This document shows positions 3,667 to 61,558 of a DNA stretch of 64,000 nt, one piece after another (the first letter of the stretch is position 1; each line of letters opens with the position of its first letter). Made by a program: the position numbers and the translations under genes. The notes beneath the pieces were generated by a model. It was not told where the DNA came from. It worked only from the letters and a program-made list of their open reading frames with translations, and did no database searches. Source of the stretch: Candidatus Kerfeldbacteria bacterium. GTDB taxonomy: Bacteria > Patescibacteriota > Patescibacteriia > SBBC01. The DNA lies in the NCBI GenBank assembly GCA_016207275.1, contig JACQPY010000013.1, positions 90,583 to 154,582 on the forward strand, given 5' to 3'.

Positions 3667-4464
3667 TCACGAGCTGGCCGAACTGTAGGCTTTAAGGCCG
3701 CGTTGCCAGGCGACCTTGGCTAGCCAGGCGAAGACCACCACCGGTACGGTAACGCCGAGCAGCACGTTTGGCGTCAGTAGTCCGTTGAGGGCTTGGGCCG
3801 GCACGCTGCCGACGACGGCAAACGGGATGACGTAGGTCAGCAACTGACTCTGCTGCGTGCCCAGGCTGTCAGTTGGGTAGCGGCCGGTTAGAAACAGGTA
3901 CTCGTAGATACGGCCGAGGCCGGTCGACACCAGCGAGTGAAATGAAATTGAAGCGACGATAGTACTCAGGCTAAAGGTGAAGGCCAAGCCCAAGACCACG
4001 GCGTAAGCAAAGACGGCCACGTCAGTCAGGCTGGGGCGCACAATGCCTTGACTGATGAGGTAAACCCACAAGGCCAGGATCGGGGTGCTTGAGATTAAAT
4101 CCATCGTATCAATGATGCGAAAGCCGACGTGCGGCAAGACCGGTACCGGTTTGGTGACAAACCCATCGAACGTGCCTTTTCGAAGGTGATCAGGCAGGTA
4201 GTACGCTAAGTTGCGGTGGAAGGTAATAATGATCAGGGATTCGAACGTCAGGTAGGTGGCGATTAAGGTCAGTACGGCGGGGCGGTCCCAGGAACCGAGA
4301 CGGTCAACGTGCAAAAAAACGGCTTCAAAGAAAATCAAGACAATGGCCATCCGCAACACTTTGCTGATGATCGCCAACCAGAAGCTCTTTCGGTAGGCCA
4401 GCTGCTGCATGAAGCTGAGGCGGAAAAACAGACTGGTCAGTTTGGCGATTCGGTGAAACCTCAT
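3667..4464 (-). CDS. ABC-2 family transporter permease (265 aa)
   Basis: A multi-TM protein. It is a paralogue of the adjacent ORF (same length, ATGA overlap) and shows ABC-2 type membrane protein features. Confidence 0.65.
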   Translation of the reverse strand: MRFHRIAKLTSLFFRLSFMQQLAYRKSFWLAIISKVLRMAIVLIFFEAVFLHVDRLGSWDRPAVLTLIATYLTFESLIIITFHRNLAYYLPDHLRKGTFDGFVTKPVPVLPHVGFRIIDTMDLISSTPILALWVYLISQGIVRPSLTDVAVFAYAVVLGLAFTFSLSTIVASISFHSLVSTGLGRIYEYLFLTGRYPTDSLGTQQSQLLTYVIPFAVVGSVPAQALNGLLTPNVLLGVTVPVVVFAWLAKVAWQRGLKAYSSASS

Positions 4465-9480: not shown

Positions 9481-9831
9481 TTAGACGAACTCAATGAGAG
9501 CCTGTTGACTGGCGTCGCCGGCCCGCCGGCCGAGCCGCGTAATTCTGGTATAGCCACCCGGACGTCGCGCGTAGCGCGGGCCTAGCTGAGTTAAAATTTT
9601 CTGTACGGCCTGCTCATTACCGAGGGTAGCCAGGAGGTGTCGTCGGTTAGCTAACGAGGCCGCTCGGCCGCGCGTGACCACCCGCTCAACGAACGGCCGG
9701 AGCGCCTTGGCTTTTGCTTCAGACGTAGTCATTCGACCGTAGGTAATCAGACTGATGGCTAAACTGCGCAGCAACTGACGTCGCGGTGCACTGGTCCGGC
9801 CAAGAATATTTTTTTTACTCCGGTGGCGCAT
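9481..9831 (-). CDS. rplQ: 50S ribosomal protein L17
   Basis: N-terminus MRHRSKKNILGRTSAPRRQLLRSLAISLI; the L17 family is conserved throughout. Confidence 0.9.
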   Translation of the reverse strand: MRHRSKKNILGRTSAPRRQLLRSLAISLITYGRMTTSEAKAKALRPFVERVVTRGRAASLANRRHLLATLGNEQAVQKILTQLGPRYARRPGGYTRITRLGRRAGDASQQALIEFV

Positions 9832-16448: not shown

Positions 16449-18122
16449 TTAGGGACGAACTACTTGACCTGGTTCAAGGTGGCGCGTGTGCGGTGAACCC
16501 GGTGGCACGGGAACGTGCGGTACCGATGGCCGCGGTGAGGATTGACGTGTTTCTTTGGGCGGTGTTGACTTTGCTGGTTTACCGCCAAAGGTTACGGGCG
16601 CTTGCTTAAGCGCTTCAGTTAAGGAAATTGGCGGTGGTGTGCTGATCACGTTCGGTTCCTCGACGACGCGCTCGCTGGTTAGATCAATGACCGGTTGGTT
16701 TGATCGCTGACCGCTCGGCGATCGTCGATCAGCGGCGACGTTCTCGCTCTCCGCCGTGCCCTTGAAAATTTCTTCCACCCCGCTCCAGCGTAAGATTTTG
16801 TCTTCGACGACATCACGCTGTGTGGCATAGCGTTCCCGCGAGACGCGAATAATCTTGTCCCGGTTACCAGCCCGCGGGAATACCTGATCAACCGGCGGTA
16901 ACCCGGTCGCCGAAAACGGATCCGAGGCCACACCGTCAATCATCAGCTTTAAGTAAATATCATACTTCGTCAGGTTGACGAGGTCGGTCTCGGTAAAAAC
17001 GGGGGCGAATTCTTTTTCTAAAAACTCGGCGTCGGCGGCGCCGATACGAAAACAGACGATCGTTCCAACGTTACCAAAGACGGCGGCGCTGACTGTTTCC
17101 GAAAGTTGTTCGATGTACTGATGGGCGATAATTAAGTTGAGATGGTACTTCCGGGCTTCCGAGAGAATGGTGGCAAATGACTCCGTGGCAAAATTTTGAA
17201 ACTCGTCGACGTACATATAGAAGTCGCGACGCTGCGGTTCGGGTTTATCAATCCGACTCATTGCCGCGAGTTGCAACTTCGTAATCATCATCGCCCCGAG
17301 GAGCGAACTATTATCTTCGCCAATCCGGCCTTTGGCTAGATTCATCAACAGAATTTTACCTTCGTCCATTAACCAGCGCAGGTCGAATGACGATTTTGGC
17401 TGCCCGACAATATTGCGGATAACCGAGGAGGACAAAAATTGTCCGACTTTGTTTTGAATTGGACTAATCGCTTCGGTGCGGAACTGGTTGGAGTAGGCGG
17501 AGAACTCTTCAATCCAGAAGGCTTTGACGATTGGATCAGTTACCTTGGTGATTATCTTGGCCCGGTACTTTTTATCGACTAACAGCCGGGTGACGCCGAG
17601 CAGCGTGGAGCCCGGGTACTCCAGGAGCGACAGAATGCAGTTACGGAGCACGTACTCCAGTCGCGGCCCCCAGGAATCGACCCAGATTTTTTTGAAGACG
17701 GCAATTAGCCCCGACGATACCAGGTGCCGGTGATTGGGGTCGACCGCTTCCAAGACGTTGAATGAAATGGGGTGATCAAAGTCGGCCGGATTGAAATAGA
17801 TGATGTCGTTAACTCGCGGCGACGGAATGAAATCGATTATTTTCTCAACGAGATCACCAAGCGGGTCAATCACGACCAAGCCGTGGCCGGTGTTGATGTC
17901 CGACATGATCATGTTCTCGAGCATGGTTGACTTACCCATGCCGGTTTTGCCAATGAGGTAGACGTGCCGACGTCGATCGTCAGTTTTAATACCGAACTTA
18001 CGCCGGACATTGTGGTAGTTTGTTTCGGCAAAATACGTCACCTCATCTTCAAGCAGTTGGTGGTCCGGCGGTGGCGGCGTGATAATCGGCGCGGGTTCGA
18101 GTTGCGGTTGCGGTTGATGCAT
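16449..18122 (-). CDS. VirD4/TraG/TrwB-like (type IV coupling-protein-like) P-loop ATPase, soluble, with a Pro/Ser-rich C-terminal tail
   Basis: Walker A LIGKTGMGKST, Walker B FYMYVDEFQNF, and a motif near the C-terminus of the ATPase core (LIIAHQYIEQL) of the AHQ/QxxQL type seen in T4CP/VirB4-class ATPases. There is no N-terminal TM segment. Confidence 0.55.
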   Translation of the reverse strand: MHQPQPQLEPAPIITPPPPDHQLLEDEVTYFAETNYHNVRRKFGIKTDDRRRHVYLIGKTGMGKSTMLENMIMSDINTGHGLVVIDPLGDLVEKIIDFIPSPRVNDIIYFNPADFDHPISFNVLEAVDPNHRHLVSSGLIAVFKKIWVDSWGPRLEYVLRNCILSLLEYPGSTLLGVTRLLVDKKYRAKIITKVTDPIVKAFWIEEFSAYSNQFRTEAISPIQNKVGQFLSSSVIRNIVGQPKSSFDLRWLMDEGKILLMNLAKGRIGEDNSSLLGAMMITKLQLAAMSRIDKPEPQRRDFYMYVDEFQNFATESFATILSEARKYHLNLIIAHQYIEQLSETVSAAVFGNVGTIVCFRIGAADAEFLEKEFAPVFTETDLVNLTKYDIYLKLMIDGVASDPFSATGLPPVDQVFPRAGNRDKIIRVSRERYATQRDVVEDKILRWSGVEEIFKGTAESENVAADRRSPSGQRSNQPVIDLTSERVVEEPNVISTPPPISLTEALKQAPVTFGGKPAKSTPPKETRQSSPRPSVPHVPVPPGSPHTRHLEPGQVVRP

Positions 18123-18125
18123 ACG

Positions 18126-19607
18126 CTAGAGCGGTAGGTTGTCCGGCGCTGATCCTCGTTTGGTTGAGATCGTTGGGTGGAGCGGCGGCGGCGCCTCCAC
18201 GGCGGGCAGAGGAATTGACGATGGCGGCCTGGCTGACGGCGCGATCGAAGCAACCGACGCGGCTTGCCCCGGGGAAAACGGCGTACCCCGTAAGAATTCG
18301 GCTTCAACCGGAAGCGTCGCCGGCGGCTCACCGCGCTTACTCTCGGTTTTTTGCACCCGCGGGGCTTTGACCACCGTGGTGACGGGGAAGTGGTAGAGGC
18401 TGGCGAGCTCTTCGATGTTGAGAATGAACTTATTGCGCCCGCGTTTTAGGCTACGGTACTTGTATCCGTACAGCCGGCGCCATTTTCTCCAGTTGCCGCG
18501 CAGGGTGACGAACCATAATTCGGCGTTCGTTTTTGTTTTTTTGTCAATCATAAACCCGTTTAGATCAAGCGTATTAAACTGCCGCATCGCTCCAACCATG
18601 GCCGGACGACGGGTTCGGTTAAAAACGTCGTGTTTAGCTAGGTACATCAGCCGTATTTTTGATAGGTAGGCTGGTTTAGAGAGTTTAATGCCGACTTGTT
18701 CGACGGCCGTCCGCTCATGCGGCGGCAAGTGGAGCATCAGGCTCGGCGGCGTCCGGTCCTGACCAGTTTCGCTCGCCAGCGGCGACGGCGGGATGACACT
18801 GGCCACCGCCGATTCGTAGAGCCCTTGGGAAACCCAGGCCGGCAGCCAGCCCAAGTTTGATTTTTTTTCGATCACCTTGGAACCGATAAGTTTTTTCACC
18901 AGCCGAACGCCTTCGTCGCGCCAGCGGTCACTAGCCGGTTCAATAACGATCTGCATCCAATATTGTTCACCGCGGCCGAGACGCGAAAAAGTTTCTAAAA
19001 TGTTAGCCATCGGGTCAAAGAACGTTTGGGATAAGCTATGCTCAAACGACGGATAGGTTTTAATGGGGTAATATTGCTTGTTGGTCAGCTTGAGTTCCGT
19101 TCCCCACAGGTCGAATTCCTCGTTTGGAAACTTAGGTTGAAAGGCGGCGGTATAATCATTAACCTCAGCGATCTCGGCGTTCGGATACTGGGCGTAAAAA
19201 GCCGCCTCGACCAGGTCGCGAAACTTCTCCGGAGTCCGGATTAAAAACTGAACGCAGCCCTCGATGCTGATCAGCTCGAGCGAAAAGCCCAGCTGGGTAT
19301 AGCCATCAATAAAACGCTCCTTGATGTTGCCGAGCTTTTGGACGCCGAGCAGGTGCGCGAAAATTTGCTCGACCGCCTTAGGGCTCTGTTCATTCTCCTT
19401 CGGGACGTCAATCGCCAAGAGGACGTACTTTTGCGCCCCGGAAAACCTATTTCGAATGTACTCAAGCCAACCCTGCCAGCCACCATAGATAAAGACCGGA
19501 ATCAACACCAGCCAGGCACCGTGGGCAAACAAAAACCACATGGTGGCAAAGGGGTTGGTCACCCCACCAGCACCCGTGACGGTACTCAGGTCGATGACGA
19601 TTTCCAT
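18126..19607 (-). CDS. Large single-pass membrane protein of unknown function (493 aa), co-operonic with the T4CP-like ATPase
   Basis: One N-terminal TM helix (FATMWFLFAHGAWLVLIPVFIYGGW), then a roughly 400-aa soluble domain and a Pro/Ser-rich tail. It sits 3 nt upstream of the ATPase gene and 12 nt downstream of the regulator-like gene. Confidence 0.5.
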   Translation of the reverse strand: MEIVIDLSTVTGAGGVTNPFATMWFLFAHGAWLVLIPVFIYGGWQGWLEYIRNRFSGAQKYVLLAIDVPKENEQSPKAVEQIFAHLLGVQKLGNIKERFIDGYTQLGFSLELISIEGCVQFLIRTPEKFRDLVEAAFYAQYPNAEIAEVNDYTAAFQPKFPNEEFDLWGTELKLTNKQYYPIKTYPSFEHSLSQTFFDPMANILETFSRLGRGEQYWMQIVIEPASDRWRDEGVRLVKKLIGSKVIEKKSNLGWLPAWVSQGLYESAVASVIPPSPLASETGQDRTPPSLMLHLPPHERTAVEQVGIKLSKPAYLSKIRLMYLAKHDVFNRTRRPAMVGAMRQFNTLDLNGFMIDKKTKTNAELWFVTLRGNWRKWRRLYGYKYRSLKRGRNKFILNIEELASLYHFPVTTVVKAPRVQKTESKRGEPPATLPVEAEFLRGTPFSPGQAASVASIAPSARPPSSIPLPAVEAPPPLHPTISTKRGSAPDNLPL

Positions 19608-21798: not shown

Positions 21799-23448
21799 TT
21801 AGGCGATCGGCGGGCCCGCGCTTAGCCGCGGCCCAATTAATCCTCGATGTCGATCGAGCCAGGCAGTAATGGTCAAACGAAGAAAGGTTCGGCTGATCGT
21901 AATCGCGGAAAACATACTGACGATAATGCCGATGGCCAAGGTGATGGCGAAGCCTTTGATGATACTGGTGCCGAACCAGGCGAGAATAAAAGCGGTAATC
22001 AGGGAAGAAACGTTCGAGTCGCGAATGGACAGCCAGGCTCGTCGAAAGCCTTCCCCGAGTGCACTCTGAAGCGGTCGGCCAGCCCGCAGCTCTTCACGAA
22101 AACGCTCGAAAATCAGAATGTTGGCGTCCACGGCCATACCGATAGAGAGAATGAAACCGGCGACGCCGGCCAGGGTCAGCGTCACTGGCCACAGCTTAAA
22201 GATTGCTAAGACCATGACGGCGTAGGCAATCAGGGCGATCGACGCCAGCAGGCCAGGTACACGGTAGAAGCCGATCATGAACAGCATGACGACGGCAATG
22301 CCCACCAAGCCAGCGAACAAGCTGCGGGTGACCGAATCCTGACCGAGCGTCGGGCCGACGGTTTGCTGACTGATTAACGTGATCGGCACGGGCAAGGCAC
22401 CGGCATTCAAACGACGAGCCAGCGTTTTAGCCTCGTCAATCGTAAAGTCGCCGGTAATCACTGCCGTGCCGCCGGTAATTTCTTGCTGGACTACGGGAAC
22501 TGAAATCGGGGCGTTGTCGAGGTAGATGGCCACCTGCTTGCCAACGTTGCGTTTGGTTATTTCAGCGAATAGTTTGGTGCCCTCATCGTCGAACTGGAGA
22601 CTGACTTCTGGCTCACCGGTGTTGGGATTAAACTGAACGGCGGCGGAACGAAGCTGCTTACCGGATAACCCCGTGAGCGCATAACCCTCGGGATTCGATA
22701 GATCATTAATGGCGACCAAGATATGCTGACCATGGACTTCGAGGATAGTTTGATCGCCTTCTTGAACCTGTCGCGACTCAATTCGTTTAACGAGGTGGTA
22801 ACCAAATTCGGTTTTAACCGGCGGGGACGAAACCTGTCCGTCGCTTAAGGTATCAAAAAGAGTTTGTTCGAACGCGGGGACAAATTGGCCGCGGCGAGCA
22901 AAGCCCAAGTCACCGCCTGAGTTTTTTGAACCGGGGTCGTCAGAGTACTCTTTGGCGACCGTCGCAAAGTCCACCGTCGCCTGGCGCACCTTGGCCGCAA
23001 CTTCATCAGCACGGGCTTTAGCCTCGGTTTCGGAACGGAGTTGTTTCGCCGCTGCCGTCTCGCGAAAATCAAGTAGCGGCGTTTCACCAATTTGTCGGAT
23101 GGCCTCCTGGACGTCTTTAACCCCGGCCAGTTCAACGGAAACCCGCCACCGGTCCCCGACTCGACTGGTTTGGACAACCGGCTCAGATACGCCAAAGGCG
23201 TTGACCCGCCGTTCAATCACGTCGCGGACGCCCTGCAGGGCGTCTTCCCGATCGCTGGTTTTAACCCGAGTGGTGTCGGCGTCGTAGACTAACCGCGTGC
23301 CGCCTTGTAAATCAAGACCAAGATGAACTTTCAGTTCCTTGCGGTACGAGCCAACCGCCACGTCAGGAGCGCTGGGATAGACGACGTACCCACCGGCCAG
23401 GACCACCAGGACAATGAGGATAAACGTAATCCAGACGTTCCGTCGCAT
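21799..23448 (-). CDS. secD: Protein-export membrane protein SecD
   Basis: An N-terminal TM helix, a periplasmic domain, and the C-terminal six-TM bundle (GPTLGQDSVTRSLFAGLVGIAVVMLFM...). It sits 3 nt upstream of secF. Confidence 0.9.
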   Translation of the reverse strand: MRRNVWITFILIVLVVLAGGYVVYPSAPDVAVGSYRKELKVHLGLDLQGGTRLVYDADTTRVKTSDREDALQGVRDVIERRVNAFGVSEPVVQTSRVGDRWRVSVELAGVKDVQEAIRQIGETPLLDFRETAAAKQLRSETEAKARADEVAAKVRQATVDFATVAKEYSDDPGSKNSGGDLGFARRGQFVPAFEQTLFDTLSDGQVSSPPVKTEFGYHLVKRIESRQVQEGDQTILEVHGQHILVAINDLSNPEGYALTGLSGKQLRSAAVQFNPNTGEPEVSLQFDDEGTKLFAEITKRNVGKQVAIYLDNAPISVPVVQQEITGGTAVITGDFTIDEAKTLARRLNAGALPVPITLISQQTVGPTLGQDSVTRSLFAGLVGIAVVMLFMIGFYRVPGLLASIALIAYAVMVLAIFKLWPVTLTLAGVAGFILSIGMAVDANILIFERFREELRAGRPLQSALGEGFRRAWLSIRDSNVSSLITAFILAWFGTSIIKGFAITLAIGIIVSMFSAITISRTFLRLTITAWLDRHRGLIGPRLSAGPPIA

Positions 23449-23484: not shown

Positions 23485-24888
23485 TCAACGCTCAACAATC
23501 ACGGGCGTGGCCACGGTCGCCCAGTGGTAGAGCTTCTTCGCTTCCGCTAAGGTTTGACGGATGCAACCATGTGAGACTGCCGTCCCCAGGTGGCCAACGC
23601 CTTCGTACCGTTTTCCCCCGCCGTTCGTTTTCCAGAATGGCAAGGCATGCATGCCGTAGGAACCATCGGGCGTAAAGGCCATCCACCATTCCATGTACAG
23701 GTCGTAGGGCTTAGCGTACGCGACCGTAATTTTGTTTTTAACGGCAAACGTGCCGATTGGTGTTGGCGTCGTCCACTTGCCAGTCGAGACTTGATGGGTG
23801 CCGAGCAGCAGCCCATTCTGGTAGTAGCGGAGCTTTTGTTCTGATAGATCAATGGCGATGTAGCGGTATAAATCCAAACGGCCATCGGTGCCAACCGCGC
23901 CGGGACCGACCAGCACGCCGCTGCTTCCTGCGGCAACAAAGACGCCACCGCGGAATTGCTGTTCGTACGCCAGGAACGAATGTTTTTGCCTGCCGTTGAG
24001 CGAAAAGATGCGGACGTGCGGTTTGCTACCTGGACCCTGGGCGGCGACGATTTCGGCGATACCGTCGCCGTCCAGGTCGCCGGCGGCGATCTGGACGCCA
24101 CCGGTAAACGAGGCGGCAAATGCGTAAAACGTTTGTTCGTACTGCTGACGATTAGGATCAAAAACGCGGACGCGGGTCGAAGCCGATCGTTCCTGGGCCA
24201 TGACGAGCCGACTGCGCTGGCCAGTGACTGCGGCGACGGCCACAACTACCCCCGCGGTTGAGCCGGGAAACGGCCGCAAGCTTAGACCAGCGTACTGACC
24301 GTCAGGAGTGAACGAGCGAACGTGGCTTGTCCCGTAGCCGGAACCGGTCACGATTCGCGTTTCACCGTTCGACCCCAGCGGTCCAGCGGCGACGCTGACG
24401 CCGCCGCGAAAACGTTTGTCATAGACGAAAAAGGCGGTTTGACGCGAGCCGTCGGCGTTAAAGACACGCACCTCAGGGCCGCCACCACTCCCCGGCGCGG
24501 TCACGATTTCTGCTCGACCGTCACCAGTCAAGTCGTAGGCCGCGACCCGAATCCCGCCCCGAAAACCGCGGTCGTAGGCAAAAAAGCGGCGAACGAGCCG
24601 GCCGTCGCGAGCGTAAATACGTACCTCTGGTCCGCCGCCAGGGCCCGCGCCGGTAATGATCTCGTCCGCGCCATCACCGTCGATGTCGCTCAGCGCCACG
24701 GTTACACCACCACGAAAAGTTTTACGGTAGGCGGTGATTGATTGCTGTCGGTTCCCGTTTGGCGAAAATAAATGGACCTCAGGTTCCATTCGGCCAGTTA
24801 CCGCCGCCTCGACTCGGTCAGCACGTAGCGCAAAAAACAGGCTCACGACTATGGCGATACTGGCGAGCGCTTCAACCGATGTTCGCAT
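23485..24888 (-). CDS. Secreted L,D-transpeptidase (YkuD domain) with four N-terminal FG-GAP-like repeats
   Basis: A signal-peptide-like N-terminus, then four repeats of the form FRGG.x.VAxxDxDGDGxxEIVTGxGPGGGPEVRVF. The C-terminal YkuD catalytic domain has GTHQVSTGKW...TPTPIGTFAV...HGCIRQ. Confidence 0.75.
   Translation of the reverse strand: MRTSVEALASIAIVVSLFFALRADRVEAAVTGRMEPEVHLFSPNGNRQQSITAYRKTFRGGVTVALSDIDGDGADEIITGAGPGGGPEVRIYARDGRLVRRFFAYDRGFRGGIRVAAYDLTGDGRAEIVTAPGSGGGPEVRVFNADGSRQTAFFVYDKRFRGGVSVAAGPLGSNGETRIVTGSGYGTSHVRSFTPDGQYAGLSLRPFPGSTAGVVVAVAAVTGQRSRLVMAQERSASTRVRVFDPNRQQYEQTFYAFAASFTGGVQIAAGDLDGDGIAEIVAAQGPGSKPHVRIFSLNGRQKHSFLAYEQQFRGGVFVAAGSSGVLVGPGAVGTDGRLDLYRYIAIDLSEQKLRYYQNGLLLGTHQVSTGKWTTPTPIGTFAVKNKITVAYAKPYDLYMEWWMAFTPDGSYGMHALPFWKTNGGGKRYEGVGHLGTAVSHGCIRQTLAEAKKLYHWATVATPVIVER
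23991..24726 (-). repeat. Intragenic tandem array of FG-GAP-like repeat units (about 55-60 aa each) inside the L,D-transpeptidase gene
   Basis: The DxDGDG...EIVT...PEVRVF unit recurs four times at the protein level and visibly at the DNA level (gccggcggcgat / gtcgatgtcgct ... gtcgcc motifs). Confidence 0.6.
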
Positions 24889-25077: not shown

Positions 25078-27852
25078 TCAAGCCGCTTGGCCAGCCTGCG
25101 CACGTAGTTTGCAGCTTGGGTCATTGGCCAAGTAGCACTTTTTAAACTTCTTGCCTGAACCGCATGGGCACGGATCATTCCGGCCGACATCGCGCAGACT
25201 GGTCGGGCGGTCAGCTGACGTAGGCGTGGTCGCCAGACCACGTGCGTCGGCCATGGTTTTGGCCGGACCAGCGGTAGTTAACGTTTGACTTCGCGGCGTG
25301 GCAGTGGTTTCGGCCTGGGCCAAGCCCAAAGTAAAGATTGATTGCGCGGCATGACTGTTGATCGCCGCGATTAGTTCGGTGAACAAACGGTAGGCCTCAC
25401 GTTTGTATTCAACGAGTGGCTCGCGCTGACCATAACCGCGGAGGCCGATGCCCTCACGTAAGTGCTCCATCAAATCAAGATGCTCGATCCAGAGCGAATC
25501 GATGCTGCGGAGCATGACCGCGCGGAGAAACTGCGCCAGACGCTCCGGACTGCCGACTGACGATTCCAAGTGGGCAAACTGTTGCCGGAGCAGCGTGGTC
25601 GCAAATTCGGTCAGGCCGGAGCGGACGGAGGCCTCGCCAGGACGACTGTCGACCACCGGTCCCAGCTCGCTCAGGCGACGACGGTCAGGCCACGGTTGTT
25701 GCATCAAGTTGCTGAGCGAGTCGTAGAGCTGGTCAAGATTCCACTGGGCCGGGTCGTCGCCACTCGTGTGCAGTGTCACCGCTGTTTCGACCGCCTCTTC
25801 GAGTACGTCTCGAGCCAGTTGTTGCAGCTGGTTGAGCGGGGCAAACAAAACCTCAAGACGTTTTCGATAGATGACATCCCGATGTTTGTTCATGACATCA
25901 TCGTACTCAACGAGATGCTTGCGAATATCGAAGTTATGACCCTCAACTTTCTTTTGAGCCGATTCGATCGAACGGCTGATCATCCGATTGGCAATCGGCA
26001 TATCGTCGGGAATACCGAGACGGTCCATTAAGTTTTTCATCCGCTCGCTACCGAAGATACGCATCAGGTCGTCTTCCATCGACAAGTAAAACTGGGATGA
26101 GCCAGGGTCGCCCTGACGGCCAGCGCGCCCGCGCAGCTGCAAGTCAATGCGGCGGGATTCGTGGCGTTCCGTACCGATGACGTGCAAACCGCCAAGCGTC
26201 TTAACCTGTCTCTGCAGATCTGGCTGCGGCGGGTTGCCGCCGAGGATGATGTCGACGCCGCGACCAGCCATGTTGGTGGCAATGGTGACCGCGCCGGGGC
26301 GGCCAGCTTGAGCAATGATTTGTGCTTCGCGCTCGTGATTCTTGGCGTTGAGGACCTGGTGCGGGACGCCTTCGCGTTCGAGCAACCCTGACAGCAGCTC
26401 GTTCTTAGCAATCGAGACCGTGCCAACTAAAACTGGCTGCCCCGCTTCATGTCGATGACGGATTTCCCGAACCGCGGCGGTAAACTTTCCGGTCTCAGTT
26501 TTGTAGACGCTGTCCTCGCGGTCGGTCCGGATCATCGGCCGATGGGTTGGGATGATGACCACGTCAAGGTTGTAGATTTTGTGAAATTCCTCGGCTTCGG
26601 TCGCGGCCGTACCGGTCATGCCCGCTAGTTTACGGTACAGGCGAAAGAGGTTTTGGAAGGTGATGGTCGCCAGGGTTTGGCTTTCCTGTTTAATCGCCAC
26701 GCCTTCCTTCGCCTCAATTGCCTGGTGCAAGCCCTCGGCGTACCGTCGGCCGAACATTAAACGACCAGTGAACTCGTCGACAATGACAATTTCCCCTTCC
26801 CGCACGACGTATTGTGTATCGCGTTCAAACAGTCGAGAGTGAGCTCGCAAGGCCTGGTTGATGACGTTCAGTTGCTCACTGTCAGCGCTGGCGTACAGGT
26901 TTGGTACCCCCAGCATCCGCTCCAAGGCGCTAATCCCCTCCTCAGTCAAAAATGAGCTTCGCTGTTTCTCGTCAACCTGGTAGTGTCGGTTTTCCTCAAG
27001 TTGCTTGACGAAACCATCGATCCGGCGGTAATCGTCAGCTGATCGTTCGACCGGCGCGGAAATAATCAGGGGCGTCCGGGCCTCATCAATGAGAATTGAA
27101 TCAACCTCATCAACGATAGCGTAGTGGAGCTGACGTTGAACCAGGAACCGTGGATCCGGCGCCATGTGGTCGCGTAGGTAGTCAAAGCCGAACTCATTAT
27201 TGGTTCCGTAGGTTATATCCGCTCGGTACGCGTCGGCCCGGCTGATCGGACGTAAATGTTCAAGCAGCGGATCGGTGGCCTGATCGTTATGAAAATCGGG
27301 ATCGAACTGCCAAGCGGCTTCGTGAACAATCGCGGCGCAACTCAAGCCGAGACGATGGTAAATGCTACCCATCCAACCGGTGTCGCGCTTCGCCAGATAG
27401 TCGTTGACGGTGACGACATGGACCCCGCGACCAACGAGGGCGTTGAGCGAAACGGGTAACGTCGCCACCAACGTTTTGCCTTCACCAGTTTTCATTTCGG
27501 CGATCTTCCCTTGGTGCAGAACAATTCCGCCGACGAGCTGGACATCGTAATGCCGCTGGCCGATTGCCCGTTGGGCGGCCTCACGGACCAACGCAAAAAC
27601 CTCGGCGAGGACGCCGTCAAGCTTGCGGCGGTGACCATTGACGGTCTGGCGAAGCTCATGCGCTCGCTGCCGCAACTGATCATCGGTCAAGACGCTGACC
27701 GAGCGCTCCCGCTGATTAATATCGAAAACAAACGGTTCGAGTTGTTTGAGGTACCGTTGGTTAGCGTCACCGAAAAGTTTGGTCAGTAAAGGCATACGAC
27801 CGACGGAAAAATGCGGCAGCGGAAGCATGCCATACCGACGACCGGCATGCAA
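25078..27852 (-). CDS. secA: Protein translocase ATPase SecA (the true start is probably the internal Met of MPLLTKLFG)
   Basis: DEAD-like motor (DEVDSILIDEARTPLIISAP), the full SecA architecture, and a C-terminal zinc finger CPCGSGKKFKKC. Confidence 0.95.
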   Translation of the reverse strand: MHAGRRYGMLPLPHFSVGRMPLLTKLFGDANQRYLKQLEPFVFDINQRERSVSVLTDDQLRQRAHELRQTVNGHRRKLDGVLAEVFALVREAAQRAIGQRHYDVQLVGGIVLHQGKIAEMKTGEGKTLVATLPVSLNALVGRGVHVVTVNDYLAKRDTGWMGSIYHRLGLSCAAIVHEAAWQFDPDFHNDQATDPLLEHLRPISRADAYRADITYGTNNEFGFDYLRDHMAPDPRFLVQRQLHYAIVDEVDSILIDEARTPLIISAPVERSADDYRRIDGFVKQLEENRHYQVDEKQRSSFLTEEGISALERMLGVPNLYASADSEQLNVINQALRAHSRLFERDTQYVVREGEIVIVDEFTGRLMFGRRYAEGLHQAIEAKEGVAIKQESQTLATITFQNLFRLYRKLAGMTGTAATEAEEFHKIYNLDVVIIPTHRPMIRTDREDSVYKTETGKFTAAVREIRHRHEAGQPVLVGTVSIAKNELLSGLLEREGVPHQVLNAKNHEREAQIIAQAGRPGAVTIATNMAGRGVDIILGGNPPQPDLQRQVKTLGGLHVIGTERHESRRIDLQLRGRAGRQGDPGSSQFYLSMEDDLMRIFGSERMKNLMDRLGIPDDMPIANRMISRSIESAQKKVEGHNFDIRKHLVEYDDVMNKHRDVIYRKRLEVLFAPLNQLQQLARDVLEEAVETAVTLHTSGDDPAQWNLDQLYDSLSNLMQQPWPDRRRLSELGPVVDSRPGEASVRSGLTEFATTLLRQQFAHLESSVGSPERLAQFLRAVMLRSIDSLWIEHLDLMEHLREGIGLRGYGQREPLVEYKREAYRLFTELIAAINSHAAQSIFTLGLAQAETTATPRSQTLTTAGPAKTMADARGLATTPTSADRPTSLRDVGRNDPCPCGSGKKFKKCYLANDPSCKLRAQAGQAA

Positions 27853-27855
27853 GCG

Positions 27856-28158
27856 TTAGATTCGAACCGACCGCTCTTTGGCTTTGACCACCAACCGTTC
27901 GAGTTTCGCGTAGAGCACGTCAACGGCGGCGGCGAACGACTCGCCTTCCGCCGAGGCCCGCAGGTCATCGCCCGGGGACTCAACCCAGCCGTAGGCGACG
28001 AAGACGTCGCCGCGTCGGTGGTGACGGTTGATGCTGATCTCAACGTGCATTCGAATGAGCCGCTGCCAAAATCGTTCGAGTCGTCCGAGTTTACGCTCGA
28101 TCACTGCTCGCATGCTCGGCGTCATGACAAGGTTTTTCCCGGAAATAATGATGTCCAT
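27856..28158 (-). CDS. hpf: Ribosome hibernation promoting factor (short HPF/RaiA form)
   Basis: MDIIISGKNLVMTPSMRAVIERKLGRLERF..., 100 aa, 3 nt upstream of secA. Confidence 0.8.
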   Translation of the reverse strand: MDIIISGKNLVMTPSMRAVIERKLGRLERFWQRLIRMHVEISINRHHRRGDVFVAYGWVESPGDDLRASAEGESFAAAVDVLYAKLERLVVKAKERSVRI

Positions 28159-28166
28159 AGACCTCC

Positions 28167-30185
28167 TTAAAAACCGATAAATTGAACCTCTTCCTCGAGT
28201 TGAACGCCAAACTGGTCTCGGACCTGCTGCTTGACCAGACTCGCCAGCATGACCACGTGCTCCGCGGTGCCGCCGCCGAGGTTGACGAAGAAATTCGCGT
28301 GCTGTTTGTTGACCTCGATCTGACCGATCCGTCTGCCAGCCAGCCCGGCTTCGGCAATTAAGGCCCAGGCTGGCAACCGACCATGCTTAATGACCGCGGC
28401 AAATCGCGTACGCAAACGCTCGTGGTCTTGTTTCAAGACGATATTCTTGAACATGCAACCCGCACTCGGCCAGGTCAGCGGCTGGTGTGCTCGTTTATAG
28501 GCGGTGAATTCGGCGATCTGTTGGCGAGCTTCAGCCACGGCACCGGTAGTCAGGGTACATCGGACCGTGATCACCGCCGCTGGCGTGTGCTTGAGCCGGC
28601 TGTCACGGTAGCCGAACCTAAGCTGCTCGTTCGTCCATGTTTCGACGGTTCCCCGTCCGGTAATAACCTGGCACGAGCGGACAATGTCTCGCATTTCGCG
28701 GCCAAAGGAACCGGCGTTACCGCGAACTGCCCCGCCGACGGTACCATAGATGCCGACCATAAACTCCATGCCGACGAGGCCAGCGTTGAGGCACTGACTG
28801 GCAAATAGACCCGTATTCATCCCCGCACCAACGGTAACCGCTGTACCGTCAGCGGTAAATTCAGCGTTACGCGCCTGGATGACGACGCCACGAAATCCCG
28901 GGTCGGAAAAAACACTATTGGCGCCGCCGCCGAGGATGAAGGACGGCAGTCGAGCCTGGTGCACGGCTCGAACAGTCGCCACTAATTCGGCTGACGTTCG
29001 CGCCACCACAAACATGTCAGCAGGGCCACCGATCTTAAAGTTACTGTGTTTAGCCAGCAATTCACTAAAACGAATATCACTGACCCGGGATGCCAGCTGG
29101 CGCACTACGTGACGGTACGGCGGTGGCTGGGCAAGTCGTTCAACCTGGCGAACGATCGTTTGGGCGGCATCTAACTTAGCCAGCGCTCGGACGTTAGCAG
29201 CCAACTGGCCGCGGCGCAGCTTATTTTCATGTAGCTCAAGTATGGTTTGCTCGAGTCGCTGGTGGTTTAAGGTCCGCTCGTTGAGCACCACGGCCGCTTG
29301 ATGACGAGCGAAGTACGCCGCATTAGCTTCTTGATGGGTGGCCGGAATTGGGATAACAATGGCGGGTTTACCGAGGGCGGCGATTTCCGCCAGACTCGAT
29401 AGACCGGCTCGGCAAATTACCAAATCGGCTACGGCATACGCGTCAGCCATCTCGTTTATCAAGAAATCGAATGTATGGTAGTTGGGGTGCGTCACTCGAA
29501 ACTGATTTTGTCGGCCGCCGGTCAGGTGGACGATCTGAAAATTTTTGACCAGGTTGAGACCCGCTTCGGCCACCAATTGGTTGAGGCGGAGCGCGCCCGT
29601 GCCGCCGCCAAACGCCAGCAGGACTGGTAAGGTCTTGTGCAGGCCAAAGCGTTCGTACGCCCGCTGGGCCTGGCCGTGGAGTATTTCCGGGCGAATTGGG
29701 TTGCCAACCCAACTTGTTTTTCGTCGGGAGAAATGCTGTTCAGACTCAGGAAAGGCCACGGTAATCGCCGCGGCCACCGGCGCACACAGTCGGTTGGCAA
29801 GGCCGGGTTTGATATCTTGCTGATGGATCAAGCTGGGAATACCAAAGAGTCGACCGACGTAGACGATCGGTACGCTGACATAGCTGCCGACGCTGACGAT
29901 CGCATCAGGACGAAATTGGCGGAGGAGACGCCACGCTTCGGCCACACCGATAAGCAGTCGAACAATGTCAACCACGTTAAGTAACGAAACGTAGCGGCGC
30001 AGCTTACCGGCGGTAATACCGACGAACGGTAAATCCGCCGCTTGGGCGAGTTGTCGTTCTGCGCCGTGACGGGTACCAACCAAGAGCAGCTCAACCTGAG
30101 GGTGACTTCGCCGCAGCTCGTTGGCAATCGCCAACAGCGGCACCGTGGCTCCGCCGGTACTGCCGCCGACTAAAATAACCCGCAT
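28167..30185 (-). CDS. murG-murB: MurG–MurB fusion protein: N-terminal undecaprenyl-PP-MurNAc-pentapeptide GlcNAc transferase fused to a C-terminal UDP-N-acetylenolpyruvoylglucosamine reductase
   Basis: Residues 1 to about 360 are MurG (MRVILVGGSTGGATVPLLAIANEL...). Residues from about 375 to 672 are MurB, with the FAD-binding FKIGGPADMFVVARTSAELV and LGGGANSVFSD. Confidence 0.85.
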   Translation of the reverse strand: MRVILVGGSTGGATVPLLAIANELRRSHPQVELLLVGTRHGAERQLAQAADLPFVGITAGKLRRYVSLLNVVDIVRLLIGVAEAWRLLRQFRPDAIVSVGSYVSVPIVYVGRLFGIPSLIHQQDIKPGLANRLCAPVAAAITVAFPESEQHFSRRKTSWVGNPIRPEILHGQAQRAYERFGLHKTLPVLLAFGGGTGALRLNQLVAEAGLNLVKNFQIVHLTGGRQNQFRVTHPNYHTFDFLINEMADAYAVADLVICRAGLSSLAEIAALGKPAIVIPIPATHQEANAAYFARHQAAVVLNERTLNHQRLEQTILELHENKLRRGQLAANVRALAKLDAAQTIVRQVERLAQPPPYRHVVRQLASRVSDIRFSELLAKHSNFKIGGPADMFVVARTSAELVATVRAVHQARLPSFILGGGANSVFSDPGFRGVVIQARNAEFTADGTAVTVGAGMNTGLFASQCLNAGLVGMEFMVGIYGTVGGAVRGNAGSFGREMRDIVRSCQVITGRGTVETWTNEQLRFGYRDSRLKHTPAAVITVRCTLTTGAVAEARQQIAEFTAYKRAHQPLTWPSAGCMFKNIVLKQDHERLRTRFAAVIKHGRLPAWALIAEAGLAGRRIGQIEVNKQHANFFVNLGGGTAEHVVMLASLVKQQVRDQFGVQLEEEVQFIGF

Positions 30186-30194
30186 CGGATCAGG

Positions 30195-31295
30195 TTACGA
30201 TCGAGCATAGCGAGAAATATTGGCCAATATTCCAATGGCCGCGCACGAGGTGATGAGCGCGGTACCGCCATAGCTGACGAACGGTAACGGAATGCCGGTC
30301 AACGGCAAGACGCCGGTCAACGCCCCGATGTTGATCAAGGCTTGAAAACCAAACCAGGTCGTAATCCCGGCGGCCAGGATGCGGCCGAATTCATCGGGTG
30401 CCTGGCGAGCAATGCGGTAGCCTTTAAAAATAAACGCGACAAACAGCGCCAGCAAGCCAAGCACGATAATGAAACCGAGCTCTTCAGCGATGATGGCAAA
30501 AATTGAATCGCTGGTGGCCTCCGGTAAGTAGTCGAATTTCTGGCGCGAGTGCCCGAGACCGAGGCCGAAGAGGCCGCCTGAACCGATTGCCAAAAGCGCT
30601 TGGTTAATGTGGTAGCCAATGCCCTGCGGGTCGAGCTGCGGGTTAAGGAAGACCAAAAAACGTTCGACGCGATACGACGCGGTCTTGATGAGCACGGCAA
30701 AAGCGGTAACGGCAAAACCACCAATCAAGACTAAATCGCGCACCGGCGCACCGGCGACAAAGTAGCTCGATAAAGCAATCAGGGTGATAATGGTCATCGT
30801 GCCGATGTCGGGTTGTCTGATGATGAGAAGCGTAATCGTACCGAGAATCGCCAGGAACGGCCAGAGGCCGTAAGCACGATCTTGAATTCGGTGTTCGCGT
30901 TCACTCAGCCAGCCGGCTAAGTAAATCAAAAACATGATTTTTACCAACTCGGCAGGTTGAAAAAAAATAGGACCGATCGAGATCCACCGTCGTGCGCCGA
31001 GCAACTCGCGGCCAATTCCTGGAATGAAAACAGCGACTAGCAGGGCGATTGACAAAACCAGAAGCGGAAAAGCAACGGCCCGCCACTGGCGATAGTCAAT
31101 CCTAACGGTGACGCTAAAAATAATAACGCCGATGAGGATACTTAATAGTTGCCGCTTTAAAAAGTACGTACTGTCACCGTACTGCTGGTAGGCGACGACC
31201 GTACTGGCGCTCGATAAGACCACGAGCCCGAAAACCACGATGGCGCCGACGATGAGGAGCAGGGCGGGATCGAGGCGGCGTGAGGAACGGGTCAT
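30195..31295 (-). CDS. ftsW: SEDS-family peptidoglycan polymerase FtsW/RodA
   Basis: A 10-TM SEDS protein with LLLIVGAIVVFGLVVLSSAS... and the conserved C-terminal GGTALITSCAAIGIL. A 4-nt overlap with the upstream gene. Confidence 0.85.
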   Translation of the reverse strand: MTRSSRRLDPALLLIVGAIVVFGLVVLSSASTVVAYQQYGDSTYFLKRQLLSILIGVIIFSVTVRIDYRQWRAVAFPLLVLSIALLVAVFIPGIGRELLGARRWISIGPIFFQPAELVKIMFLIYLAGWLSEREHRIQDRAYGLWPFLAILGTITLLIIRQPDIGTMTIITLIALSSYFVAGAPVRDLVLIGGFAVTAFAVLIKTASYRVERFLVFLNPQLDPQGIGYHINQALLAIGSGGLFGLGLGHSRQKFDYLPEATSDSIFAIIAEELGFIIVLGLLALFVAFIFKGYRIARQAPDEFGRILAAGITTWFGFQALINIGALTGVLPLTGIPLPFVSYGGTALITSCAAIGILANISRYARS

Positions 31296-33471: not shown

Positions 33472-34524
33472 CTAGGTCACCCCGCGGTCAATCAGGACAA
33501 GAATGAAGCCGATCACCGCGGTGACTGCCGATATGATCCAAAAACGCATGACTACTTTTGGTTCCGGCCAACCGCGGGCTTCAAAGTGGTGGTGGATCGG
33601 TGCCGAACGGAACAACTTGCGTCCGGTCAGGCGACGCCAGGCGATTTGAAGAATCACGGAAGTCGACTCAAGCACCAGGACAAAACTGATGATCGGGAGA
33701 AATAGAGCGGCGTTCGTCAGCATCGCCACGACGCCGAGGGTGGTGCCCAGCCCCATGGCACCGGTATCGCCCATGAAAAAGCGCGCCGGATGAATGTTGA
33801 ACCACAAAAAGGCAAGCAGACTACCAACAATCACGCCGCAGAAGGTGGCGAGAAAAAAATGTCCTTGGATAAAGGCAATGGCCCCAAAGGTGGCAAACGC
33901 GGCCAGCAGAACACCACCCGCGAGTCCGTCGAGCCCATCGGTTATGTTGACGGAATGAGACGTGGCGACGATGATAAAAATAAAAATCGGGACATACCAT
34001 AAGCCAATGTCAAAATTTCCAACAAACGGTATGTGGATCGTGGTCCAGTCAAGCTTGACCACGAACCACCACGCGCCAACGGCGGCAATCAACGCGTAGA
34101 GGACCAGTCGGTGTCGGACCCGCAGGCCGCTGGCCGTTCCGATTCGACGAACGTTAAAAACGTCATCAATCAAGCCGACGAGAGACGCCGCGACGAGCGC
34201 CCCGAGCGGCAACAGCGTTTCTGCCCGGGTCAAGAAGTTGAACCGGTGCCAGGTCGAAAACCCAAGCACCCGATCGAGCAACCACGGCAGCCCGGCGAAG
34301 ACGAGCGTCGTCACCCAGACTAACACGCCGCCCATCGTCGGCGTACCTTGTTTTGCCTGGTGTAATCCGGTGAACACCGGCGTCTGACCGGCATCCCTAA
34401 TTTGCTTACCGATTCGGTAGCGGAACAAAAAATTCGTCAGGAGCGGGGTCCAGGCAACGGTCACCGTAAAGGCGGCCGCGGTCAAGACGAACAACGCGAT
34501 AATAGCTGCATCAACGCTACTCAT
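33472..34524 (-). CDS. mraY: Phospho-N-acetylmuramoyl-pentapeptide transferase MraY (start at the Met forming an ATGA overlap with the upstream small ORF; the track ORF extends to 34701)
   Basis: SVNITDGLDGLAGGVLL and HHHFE motifs, 10 TM helices. Confidence 0.9.
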   Translation of the reverse strand: MSSVDAAIIALFVLTAAAFTVTVAWTPLLTNFLFRYRIGKQIRDAGQTPVFTGLHQAKQGTPTMGGVLVWVTTLVFAGLPWLLDRVLGFSTWHRFNFLTRAETLLPLGALVAASLVGLIDDVFNVRRIGTASGLRVRHRLVLYALIAAVGAWWFVVKLDWTTIHIPFVGNFDIGLWYVPIFIFIIVATSHSVNITDGLDGLAGGVLLAAFATFGAIAFIQGHFFLATFCGVIVGSLLAFLWFNIHPARFFMGDTGAMGLGTTLGVVAMLTNAALFLPIISFVLVLESTSVILQIAWRRLTGRKLFRSAPIHHHFEARGWPEPKVVMRFWIISAVTAVIGFILVLIDRGVT

Positions 34525-34889
34525 GCCAGTAACCGAAAAGTCAGGACGGCGGCCGCCAACAACATCAATTCGAGGAACGTCGTTAAAACCGTAATCAGAA
34601 CCGCCGACGCCCGCTGGTGTTCCACGACGCTGGCGTACAACATGGTGTTGATGAGCAGCATCACGGTTCCGGATAAGGGCAAGAGGTAGGCCAGGTACCA
34701 CGGCCCGATTCGGTCAATTCCAAAAGTGGTGGTATAGTGCAGTGGTATGGGATCTGGTTGCGGCCGAACTCGCCACGCCGTGAAAACCCATTGGCCGAGG
34801 TTGAGTGTCGTGGCGAGGGCAATGATGAAGGGAATCCCACGCTGGAGCCTGATTTTTGCTAATCCGCGGAGCGGAGAGGTTAAGCGCAT
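34521..34889 (-). CDS. Hypothetical small membrane protein (122 aa) immediately upstream of mraY
   Basis: Three to four predicted TM helices, an ATGA overlap with mraY, same strand and coding-like composition. No family recognised. Confidence 0.4.
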   Translation of the reverse strand: MRLTSPLRGLAKIRLQRGIPFIIALATTLNLGQWVFTAWRVRPQPDPIPLHYTTTFGIDRIGPWYLAYLLPLSGTVMLLINTMLYASVVEHQRASAVLITVLTTFLELMLLAAAVLTFRLLA

Positions 34890-46022: not shown

Positions 46023-47330
46023 CTAATCCGCCTCCTCAACTCGTTGGATGTTGGCTCCGAGCGCGGCCAAGCGTTGATCCAGTTGCTCGTAGCCTCGATC
46101 GACCTGGTATGCCGGACCGATGACCGAGGTGCCCTGAGCAATTAAGGCGGCGACAAACAGCGCGGCGCCAGCGCGAATGTCGTAGCTGGCAATCTCGGCG
46201 CCGAATAAATTCGTTGGTCCCGTAACCAGCAGGCGATGGGGGTCGGCGACAAAAATTTGTCCGCCCATTTTACGTAATTCCTCGGCGTACTTTTGTCGCC
46301 CCTCATACATCCAATCATGAACCAGGCTGGTGCCGTGGGCTTGCGTCAGCATGACGGTAAAGGCGGGCAGCAGGTCCGCCGCGATCCCAGGGTACGGCAT
46401 ATTATGGACGTTCCGCAGGGCCGTCAGTTCCGTTGAACGACGAACCCGAACATCAGCCACGAGGTACGCTTGATTAATCGATGGGTGAAGCTTGGTAATC
46501 TCGAAATGAACGTTGGCTTCAGAAAACTTTTGCAGTGCAGCCGCCATAAAGGTCGTGGGCACATCAGTCAGAACAAGTTCCGCTCGAGCGGCCGCGGCCA
46601 GGGCGATGAAGGTGCCTGATTCGACCGGGTCGGGCATGACCGCGTACGATTTCAGCGGCGTTAACTGACTGACGCCATCGATCGTTAGGGTATGGGTGCC
46701 GATGCCAGCGACTTTGGCCCCGCGCTGCTGAAGCAACCAACAAAGTTCTTGCACCGATGGCTCAGCCGCCGCACAGTTGATGACGGTGCGCTTACCTTCG
46801 GCCAAAACGGCTGCTAACACAACATTTTCCGTCGCGGTCACGCTAAACTCAGACATGGCCAAAACAACATCACCGCGATCGTGCTGGACGAGCTCGTAGG
46901 TATCGCCTGTTTGCGTAACCTCAACCCCGAGCAGGCGAAAAGCGTCAACGTGGGCCGCCAGCGGACGAGCACCGATTTGGTCACCGCCGGGACCGGGCAT
47001 CCGAACCCGCCGACAGCGTCCGAGCAACGCACCCATTAGGAGCACCGACGACCGCAAGCGACGAACGACTGGCCAGGCCAGCTTCGCCGGGTCAACTGAT
47101 CGCGCTTCGATGGTGAGGGTGTGTAAGTCGTCGCGTGTGACGGTCGCACCAACGCTGCTAAGCAGCTCAATAATCCGCTGGACGTCTTCGATGTTCGGTA
47201 CGTTGGTCAGCGTGCATGGGTGCGGCGAAAGTAACGACGCAACCAGCAGCGGCGTGGCTGCGTTCTTGGAACCTTGAATGCCAATTGTTCCGCTCAACGG
47301 CTGCTGCCCCTGAATTCGGAAGTGAGTCAT
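46023..47330 (-). CDS. murA: UDP-N-acetylglucosamine 1-carboxyvinyltransferase MurA (start at the Met of MTHFRIQG; the track ORF extends to 47414)
   Basis: FRIQGQQPLSGTIGIQGSKNAATPLLVASLL... and the active-site loop region are conserved. Confidence 0.9.
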   Translation of the reverse strand: MTHFRIQGQQPLSGTIGIQGSKNAATPLLVASLLSPHPCTLTNVPNIEDVQRIIELLSSVGATVTRDDLHTLTIEARSVDPAKLAWPVVRRLRSSVLLMGALLGRCRRVRMPGPGGDQIGARPLAAHVDAFRLLGVEVTQTGDTYELVQHDRGDVVLAMSEFSVTATENVVLAAVLAEGKRTVINCAAAEPSVQELCWLLQQRGAKVAGIGTHTLTIDGVSQLTPLKSYAVMPDPVESGTFIALAAAARAELVLTDVPTTFMAAALQKFSEANVHFEITKLHPSINQAYLVADVRVRRSTELTALRNVHNMPYPGIAADLLPAFTVMLTQAHGTSLVHDWMYEGRQKYAEELRKMGGQIFVADPHRLLVTGPTNLFGAEIASYDIRAGAALFVAALIAQGTSVIGPAYQVDRGYEQLDQRLAALGANIQRVEEAD

Positions 47331-47423
47331 GAACCAACCGGTAGCCTTGTCAGCATGCGCCTGATACAATGGTGAGTACGTTGAGCATTCTACCATAATG
47401 AACCAACCCGTCAACGAAAGCCA

Positions 47424-61524: not shown

Positions 61525-61558
61525 CCCGACCAGGAGGCCGAGGGCGGGCGCGCCGACG

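Follow-up and report, generated by a model that had tools for sequence, protein, structure and literature searches.

The fused gene and its modules

This report concerns murG-murB, a single open reading frame (ORF) in a 64,000-nucleotide stretch of DNA (the window) from a Candidatus Kerfeldbacteria bacterium of the candidate phyla radiation (CPR; Patescibacteria; GenBank assembly GCA_016207275.1, contig JACQPY010000013.1, positions 90,583 to 154,582). The gene lies in a compact mraY-[pgeF-murD]-ftsW-[murG-murB] cluster, an arrangement described in the original prediction and borne out here, and it encodes two enzymes of peptidoglycan synthesis. MurG is the transferase that converts lipid I to lipid II by addition of N-acetylglucosamine (GlcNAc), and MurB is the FAD- and NADPH-dependent reductase of UDP-GlcNAc-enolpyruvate. 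Between the two act MurC, MurD, MurE, MurF, and MraY, that is, five reactions. The coordinates of the features discussed are collected in Table 1.

The ORF begins with ATG and runs for 672 codons with no internal stop. Its N-terminal half contains the Pfam domains Glyco_transf_28 (residues 3-141, 87.9 bits) and Glyco_tran_28_C (residues 189-343, 112.4 bits), and its C-terminal half contains FAD_binding_4 (residues 390-516, 65.3 bits) and MurB_C (residues 554-670, 97.2 bits). The NCBIfam equivalog models span each enzyme from end to end: the murG model TIGR01133 covers residues 1-346 with 256.3 bits, a narrow pass over its cut-off of 250.25, and NF010480 covers residues 363-671 with 261.5 bits (cut-off 259), with TIGR00179 also exceeded by the MurB half (199.7 bits, cut-off 144.5). 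An uninterrupted ORF with both modules above equivalog cut-offs confirms the single-polypeptide fusion that had been claimed, and the motifs then quoted, GGPADMFVV and LGGGANSVFSD, are found at residues 386-394 and 418-428. Two complete enzymes of the peptidoglycan pathway on one ORF are what define a natural Mur chimera. No second murG or murB is present within the window.

Table 1. Positions in the window of the fused gene, its modules and key residues, and the associated cell wall and neighboring genes
Feature	Position	Strand	Remarks
murG-murB fused gene, complete ORF	28167..30185	-	672 residues plus stop; identical in an independent assembly
MurG module, residues 1-353	29127..30185	-	GT28 N- and C-terminal Rossmann domains; Pfam, NCBIfam, and phmmer against 3S2U, 7D1I, and 1F0K
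MurG G-loop GGSTGGA, residues 7-13	30147..30167	-	Ala13 for canonical His (E. coli H19)
MurG HQQD, residues 121-124	29814..29825	-	For canonical HEQN
Connector PPPYR, residues 354-358	29112..29126	-	From ends of standalone MurG and MurB proteins and the junction alignment
MurB module, residues 359-672	28170..29111	-	Native N-terminal helix (~358-365), FAD_binding_4, and MurB_C
MurB catalytic Arg527 (YRDS)	28605..28607	-	
MurB proton-donor position Cys577 (AGCMF)	28455..28457	-	Ser replaced; type IIb-like, CPR-wide
MurB catalytic Glu666 (EEEVQF)	28188..28190	-	
hpf (Ribosomal_S30AE)	27856..28158	-	8 nt downstream; conserved neighbor of the fused gene
ftsW (FTSW_RODA_SPOVE)	30195..31295	-	9-nt gap to the murG-murB start codon
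pgeF-murD fusion, 714 residues	31292..33436	-	4-nt overlap with ftsW
mraY	33472..34524	-	Probable true start ATG at 34524
murA (makes the MurB substrate)	46023..47414	-	TIGR01072 405.4 bits, cut-off 392.7

Conservation and distribution of the fusion

An independent Logan contig (run SRR12113385) corresponds to window positions 27167-31185 and is exact over 4019 bp, including the junction between the modules. The survey of relatives that had been proposed as a check was made by a homolog search of 5.8 billion protein clusters, and it finds the fusion shared by 22 other full-length proteins of 671-684 residues, all with the same four-domain, in-frame architecture, at 51-73% identity. They derive from NCBI, JGI, ENA, and Logan assemblies, and the fusion is thus retained across divergence down to ~51% identity. 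The two halves are equally conserved among relatives, with identities for MurG and MurB of 59.7 and 60.6% to the protein of locus L007 and of 51.9 and 56.0% to that of L005. Likewise, the majority-residue frequency is 0.65 in the MurG module, 0.67 in the MurB module, and 0.68 in the MurB core (residues 369-672).

The distribution is narrow. When 1.84 billion representatives at 50% identity were searched exhaustively with HMMER, the fusion amounted to one full-length cluster and one partial; no other two-domain match occurs among the 150 best, all of at least 242 bits, a range from which distant fusions could escape. The named members of the family are Candidatus Kerfeldbacteria metagenome-assembled genomes (MAGs). 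A species-level genome scan with peptide patterns returned only four loci with standalone MurG and did not recover the fused clade. The deposited records name the fused proteins simply "UDP-N-acetylmuramate dehydrogenase" or "glycosyltransferase, partial," and under such names pathway reconstructions may wrongly score MurG or MurB as missing.

Among relatives the gene order is PMT_2 / 121-residue ORF-mraY-(pgeF-murD)-ftsW-murGB-hpf-secA-ykuD-secD-secF-sigma factor. In neighbor-joining trees of both halves, constructed without bootstrap, the MurG-MurB proteins form one clade, with locus L009 outside it. In L006, a related contig, murG and murB are out of frame with one another, the murB ATG lying 14 nt upstream of the murG stop. 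This contig was considered as a candidate for the ancestral unfused state, but both trees place it within the fused clade. That reading was therefore rejected, and the divided genes more likely reflect either a later split or an indel error in an assembly of low coverage. Other genes of the division and cell wall (dcw) cluster are also broken in such contigs. In L006, only a 153-residue Mur_ligase_C fragment stands in the place of murD (1386-1847), in addition to the frame-shifted murG/murB (3967-4019), and in L009 murC is split by a frameshift (9673-9773). These may be either real decay in some CPR populations or errors of low-coverage assembly.

The junction and the predicted structure

Standalone CPR MurG proteins stop a few residues past their last helix, and in standalone CPR MurB proteins 10-20 residues precede the EPLAKH...IGGPA motif. 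Because each enzyme brings its own terminus, the true connector is only about 5 residues, a position at which proline is common in the alignment of the fused family. The interdomain linker of about 15 residues previously claimed is therefore mostly the native N-terminal helix of MurB, and the junction, quoted at about 29080-29110, is placed slightly upstream of this, at ~29082-29132. Across it, residues 340-380 comprise exactly 41 residues without indels in all 22 full-length fused homologs, and yet this segment is the least conserved part of the protein, with a majority-residue frequency of 0.36-0.43. A length that is invariant while the sequence is free indicates a geometric constraint. The junction DNA contains no homopolymer run, and both other reading frames are closed by stops across it. 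There is no ATG codon between residues 246 and 391, and no purine-rich Shine-Dalgarno sequence was found before the only GTG of the junction.

Structure prediction, which had been suggested as a means of seeing whether the two modules pack, gave a confident placement. AlphaFold2, run on the 672-residue protein with a 123-row alignment, returned a mean predicted local distance difference test score (pLDDT) of 95.9, with no residue below 70, and a predicted template modeling score (pTM) of 0.84. By the TM-score formula (d0 ~9 Å at 672 residues) this pTM corresponds to an inter-module error of ~5 Å, and our own calculation gives ~0.55 as the value expected for two independently placed halves. DSSP assigns a helix to residues 355-365 in the model, and the pLDDT of the junction helix is at least 90. 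Of the control alignments, one with zero fused rows (A2) was visibly misaligned and was not used; that substituted for it (A3), in which the only other fused row served as an anchor, still gave a pTM of 0.80, the losses of confidence being concentrated at residues 351-390, 421-430, and 571-580 and at the C terminus. Foldseek matched the MurG half to Pseudomonas aeruginosa MurG (3S2U, TM 0.86) and the MurB half, which has the three-domain MurB fold, to 4PYT (TM 0.92) and 1HSK (TM 0.91), and found no solved chain spanning both halves. The model implies a defined head-to-tail packing of the MurG and MurB modules, and the fixed-length junction together with this predicted packing would favor a structurally constrained two-enzyme unit.

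Catalytic residues of the two modules

The catalytic residues of MurB, Arg527, Cys577, and Glu666, are kept in all fused homologs. Cysteine is the recognized proton donor of type IIb MurB (PMC3689657), and it also occupies this position in 115 of 120 standalone Patescibacteria MurB proteins. As in the type IIb enzyme of Thermus caldophilus (PDB 2GQT; PMC3689657), cysteine replaces serine as the residue that protonates the carbanion intermediate, and its arginine and glutamate partners are retained. Unlike that enzyme, the fused MurB has an insertion of ~25 residues after AGCMFKN, which resembles a feature of type I that type II lacks. This insertion (residues ~575-605, window 28380-28463, reverse strand) is modeled as β-α-β-β, and its combination with the type IIb cysteine is common in Patescibacteria MurB proteins.

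The MurG module is less orthodox, and the canonical pairing of GGTGGH with HEQN is absent from it. The same departures are widespread among the standalone MurG relatives retrieved (mostly CPR; P0028-P0120), of which 54 of 92 lack the G-loop histidine, with GGxTGG[S/A/P] in place of GGTGGH, and in most of these relatives HQQD replaces HEQN. Since most standalone CPR MurG proteins share them, the G-loop and HQQD variants are traits of the lineage rather than decay that followed fusion. For the same reason, the proposal that the Ser-to-Cys change in MurB and the His-to-Ala change in MurG are consequences of the fusion was rejected, both being CPR-wide and the cysteine a known type IIb variant. 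In E. coli MurG, H19 adjoins UDP-GlcNAc and the proposed lipid I site and is thought important for coupling of donor and lipid I (PMC5039524), and its lineage-wide loss may reflect a modified catalytic arrangement. The donor-binding residues of the MurG C-terminal domain are kept: LAEIAA (with Glu267) and HQEANA align with the E. coli E269 and Q288 regions (vsEiaa and rQQywna). The sequences and the predicted fold suggest that both modules are catalytically active.

Origin of the fusion

The more distant Patescibacteria loci L001 and L002 have the order ftsW-murG-murC-murB. In L009, which shares the upstream synteny of the window, murG is fused to murC and is followed by murB with a 4-nt overlap; this locus supplies the closest outgroup MurG (P0027, 47-48% identity). 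MurG-MurC fusions occur in close CPR relatives (P0027, P0242, and P0315), and L010 encodes a 1116-residue MurG-MurC-MurB triple fusion. The simplest history, read from these gene orders and the trees, would start from an ancestral ftsW-murG-murC-murB; once murC had vacated its slot, murG and murB would have become neighbors, and their reading frames would have merged, a single time, in the ancestor of a narrow Patescibacteria clade. A direct murG-murB adjacency is also found in Bacillus subtilis (PMC10336097). A search for murC using the closest outgroup MurC gave no match attributable to Kerfeldbacteria. One candidate trace of the departed gene was examined: YRHVV in the fused protein of the window resembles YRHIY, which opens the MurC module of P0027, and the junction might thus have been a MurC remnant left by an in-frame deletion in a MurG-MurC-MurB ancestor. 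The motif is missing from the other 21 fused homologs, and the resemblance was rejected as coincidence.

The original prediction had stressed the fusion of non-adjacent steps. The steps indeed do not follow each other in the pathway, but the implied unexpectedness is not upheld, because murG and murB are near neighbors in the canonical murG-murC-murB order, and the fusion tracks dcw gene order rather than pathway logic. The locus thereby shows a stepwise passage from dcw gene order to fusions, from murG-murC-murB to MurG-MurC, MurG-MurC-MurB, or MurG-MurB.

A probable bifunctional enzyme and the alternatives

We favor, with a probability of roughly 0.8, the view that murG-murB encodes a genuine bifunctional enzyme of single origin: a complete MurG followed, after a connector of ~5 residues, by a complete type IIb-like MurB in head-to-tail arrangement. 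Substrate channeling is excluded, because five reactions separate MurB from MurG in the established pathway, and each module would catalyze its own normal reaction independently. What the fusion would bring is obligatory co-expression of MurG and MurB at 1:1, together with the tethering of an otherwise soluble MurB, in fixed geometry, to the membrane-peripheral MurG beside MraY and FtsW. The ratio would match the demands of the pathway, in which each lipid II takes up one UDP-GlcNAc via MurA and MurB and one via MurG. Membrane tethering and any selective benefit are inferred. MurG has been proposed as a scaffold of the cytoplasmic Mur enzymes, and MurB is reported to co-localize with MurG in Caulobacter (PMC6420597); a tethered MurB would fit both. 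Genome streamlining and a multi-enzyme complex, the two explanations offered at the outset, are both plausible.

A number of points weigh against this assignment. Both enzyme activities are predicted from sequence and modeled structure, and on the MurG side the G-loop histidine is lacking, HQQD stands for HEQN, and the equivalog pass is narrow, oddities that are no argument against the fusion specifically because standalone CPR MurG proteins share them. The packing is deduced from a single score, the pTM of the model. The nested split in L006 means either that the fusion is dispensable there or that a low-coverage contig carries an indel. As murC was not located in the fused clade, its departure from the slot could be either relocation or outright loss. 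Finally, sister lineages fuse whatever adjoins murG.

This last point leads to the alternative that survives best, namely neutral fusion during genome compaction. In these very small genomes neighboring dcw genes overlap, and loss of a stop or a 1-nt shift would have welded them, leaving two independent enzymes that gain nothing from tethering, stoichiometry, or packing. The variety of fusions at the same locus in relatives (MurG-MurC, MurG-MurC-MurB, and PgeF-MurD), together with other composite proteins in the window (a fusion of two glycosyltransferases and a parvulin insertion in SecD, see below), is what such a process would leave behind; the fusion of non-consecutive steps is not explained by channeling, and L006 illustrates that a frame difference of 1 nt suffices to switch between fused and split forms. 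However, a free tether should vary in length over time, and the junction keeps its 41 residues in every one of the 22 homologs although its sequence is poorly conserved, while the fusion itself has been kept down to ~51% identity. The predicted helical, high-pLDDT junction and the pTM of 0.84 (0.80 in the control) also point to a structural constraint at the least. We therefore regard neutrality as a real but minority possibility. At the other extreme, the rigid junction might represent an evolved, specific docking of MurB on MurG, a covalent form of a transient contact within a Mur "metabolon" that enforces the 1:1 division of UDP-GlcNAc. Such a role is improbable, but, if true, it would make the protein a structural template for the assembly of cytoplasmic Mur enzymes on a MurG scaffold; in its radical form, these genomes would lack murC altogether and would have a rewired early pathway.

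Another possibility is that one module of the bifunctional protein is degenerate, the MurG half, for example, doing no more than anchor MurB to the membrane or scaffold it, or else acting on another acceptor. The alanine at the position of H19, a residue that adjoins both UDP-GlcNAc and the proposed lipid I site (PMC5039524), the HQQD motif, and the TIGR01133 score barely over its cut-off would fit a loss of activity. Against this, most standalone CPR MurG proteins carry these substitutions too, although they occupy canonical ftsW-murG positions and are the sole MurG candidates there, the C-terminal donor-binding residues are intact, the MurG half is conserved as strongly as the MurB half, and the window holds no second murG, such that degeneracy appears decidedly unlikely. 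It is very unlikely, too, that the fused ORF yields separate proteins through internal initiation of MurB or proteolytic cleavage at the junction. In L006, where the genes are split, a murB ATG lies 14 nt ahead of the murG stop and offers a precedent for the former, but the fused gene has neither an ATG in residues 246-391 nor a Shine-Dalgarno sequence before the sole GTG of the junction, whose unconserved sequence makes a conserved start or cleavage site unlikely and which is predicted to be helical and well ordered. That a missed stop or frameshift wrongly joined two genes in sequencing or assembly, a concern raised by the origin of the DNA in a MAG and by the different frames in L006, is effectively refuted by the independently assembled contig, exact over 4019 bp, by 22 diverged full-length homologs from four assembly sources, all in frame, and by a junction with no homopolymer and with stops in the other two frames.

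Comparison with known Mur chimeras

Natural Mur chimeras have been described for the pairs MurE-MurF, MurC-Ddl, MurC-MurB, MurG-MurC, MurD-FtsW, and MraY-MurG (PMC10214165; PMC6420597), and MurG-MurB is not among the pair types listed in these two papers. In a full-text literature search, the term "murG-murB" denoted the B. subtilis operon or a string of gene order in every case, never a fused protein. The survey of PMC10214165 left out sequences of unidentified species, and CPR MAG proteins would drop from it for this reason. The fusion is therefore modestly novel, an undescribed pair added to the known Mur chimeras that would not surprise a specialist.

The nearest parallel is provided by the MurG-MurC chimeras, found mainly in Actinobacteria (PMC10214165), in which MurG is likewise N-terminal, is fused to the next dcw gene, and is joined to a non-consecutive step. 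The partner here differs in being a flavoenzyme reductase rather than an ATP-dependent ligase, and murC is absent from the locus. In Verrucomicrobium spinosum and other Verrucomicrobia, the MurB/C fusion (PMC4803751) also involves MurB, lies in an ftsW-murG-murB/C-ddl region, and is lineage-specific and monophyletic, but it joins consecutive steps, places MurB C-terminal to MurC, and leaves MurG separate; in vitro, MurB activity of the V. spinosum protein was not demonstrable (PMC4803751). In terms of geometry, the fused protein most recalls the MurE-MurF of Bordetella pertussis, the crystal structure of which (PMC10214165) reveals a head-to-tail, essentially linker-less arrangement with the C terminus of one enzyme abutting the N-terminal region of the next, and which has been taken as support for a Mur multi-enzyme complex (PMC10214165). 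MurE and MurF, however, are ligases of consecutive steps with neighboring active sites between which hand-over is possible, whereas five reactions intervene here. In the murG-murB operon of B. subtilis (PMC10336097), murB directly follows murG and the two are co-expressed in ordinary adjacency, but as two separate proteins.

Fused Mur enzymes are cited as evidence for a precursor-synthesizing complex organized by MurG, and they give structural studies of that complex a stable material to start from. MurG-MurB extends the catalog to the early flavoenzyme step, not previously reported fused to MurG, and does so in the CPR, a group that has received little study. The rigid geometry predicted for it, almost free of a linker, would make it a candidate for solving the interface of MurG with a partner.

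The cell wall cluster and other features of the window

The MurG module directly follows ftsW, its canonical dcw position. The 4-nt overlaps that had been claimed for the cluster do not involve the fused gene, which is separated by 9 nt from ftsW and by 8 nt from hpf. ATGA overlaps are found elsewhere in the cluster, between pgeF-murD and ftsW (31292-31295) and probably between a 122-residue ORF and the true mraY start (34521-34524). This hydrophobic ORF (34521-34889, reverse strand) has no Pfam match, and it also precedes mraY in L005, L007, and L009. The listed mraY ORF (409 residues, GTG at 34701) is probably over-extended; the ATG at 34524 gives a protein of ~350 residues, and MraY has 349-352 residues in L005, L006, L007, and L009. 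A promoter scan of the cluster gave no excess over shuffled controls, and a terminator scan gave a modest excess, mostly within coding sequence.

The cluster contains a second fusion, a 714-residue ORF in which an N-terminal PgeF (TIGR00726, 155 bits) precedes a complete MurD (TIGR01087, 345 bits). PgeF-MurD is also encoded in L007 (712 residues) and in L008, where it is cut by the contig end, and the clusters of L005 and L009 are without murD. PgeF prefers UDP-N-acetylmuramate-mono(Ser/Gly), products that MurD would otherwise extend, and in the pull-downs of a 2025 study PgeF showed no interaction with either MurC or MurD (PMC12280929). The natural PgeF-MurD fusion is a functionally suggestive pairing that is unlisted among the known Mur chimeras.

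Beyond the cluster, SecD (21799-23448, reverse strand) carries a PpiC/parvulin domain (Rotamase_3, residues 135-224, 86 bits) inserted in its periplasmic P1 region, an architecture also present in L005, L007, and L008. In a 598-residue ORF (5285-7081, reverse strand), a glycosyltransferase family 4 module (GT4; Glycos_transf_1 and Glyco_trans_4_4) is fused with a GT2 domain; this ORF adjoins genes for a Wzx-like flippase and an ABC-2 transporter. FG-GAP repeats are found on an L,D-transpeptidase (YkuD; 23485-24888, reverse strand), which is conserved beside secA in relatives, and on a 1004-residue subtilase (Peptidase_S8; 58810-61824, reverse strand), both of which are unusual architectures for cell envelope enzymes. 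Finally, a TrwB/TraG-like type IV coupling protein of 557 residues is encoded beside a 493-residue ORF with no Pfam match (16449-19607, reverse strand); homologs of this ORF in L005 and L007 carry the label DUF8128. The pair sits among housekeeping genes and is conserved downstream of the sigma factor gene in relatives.

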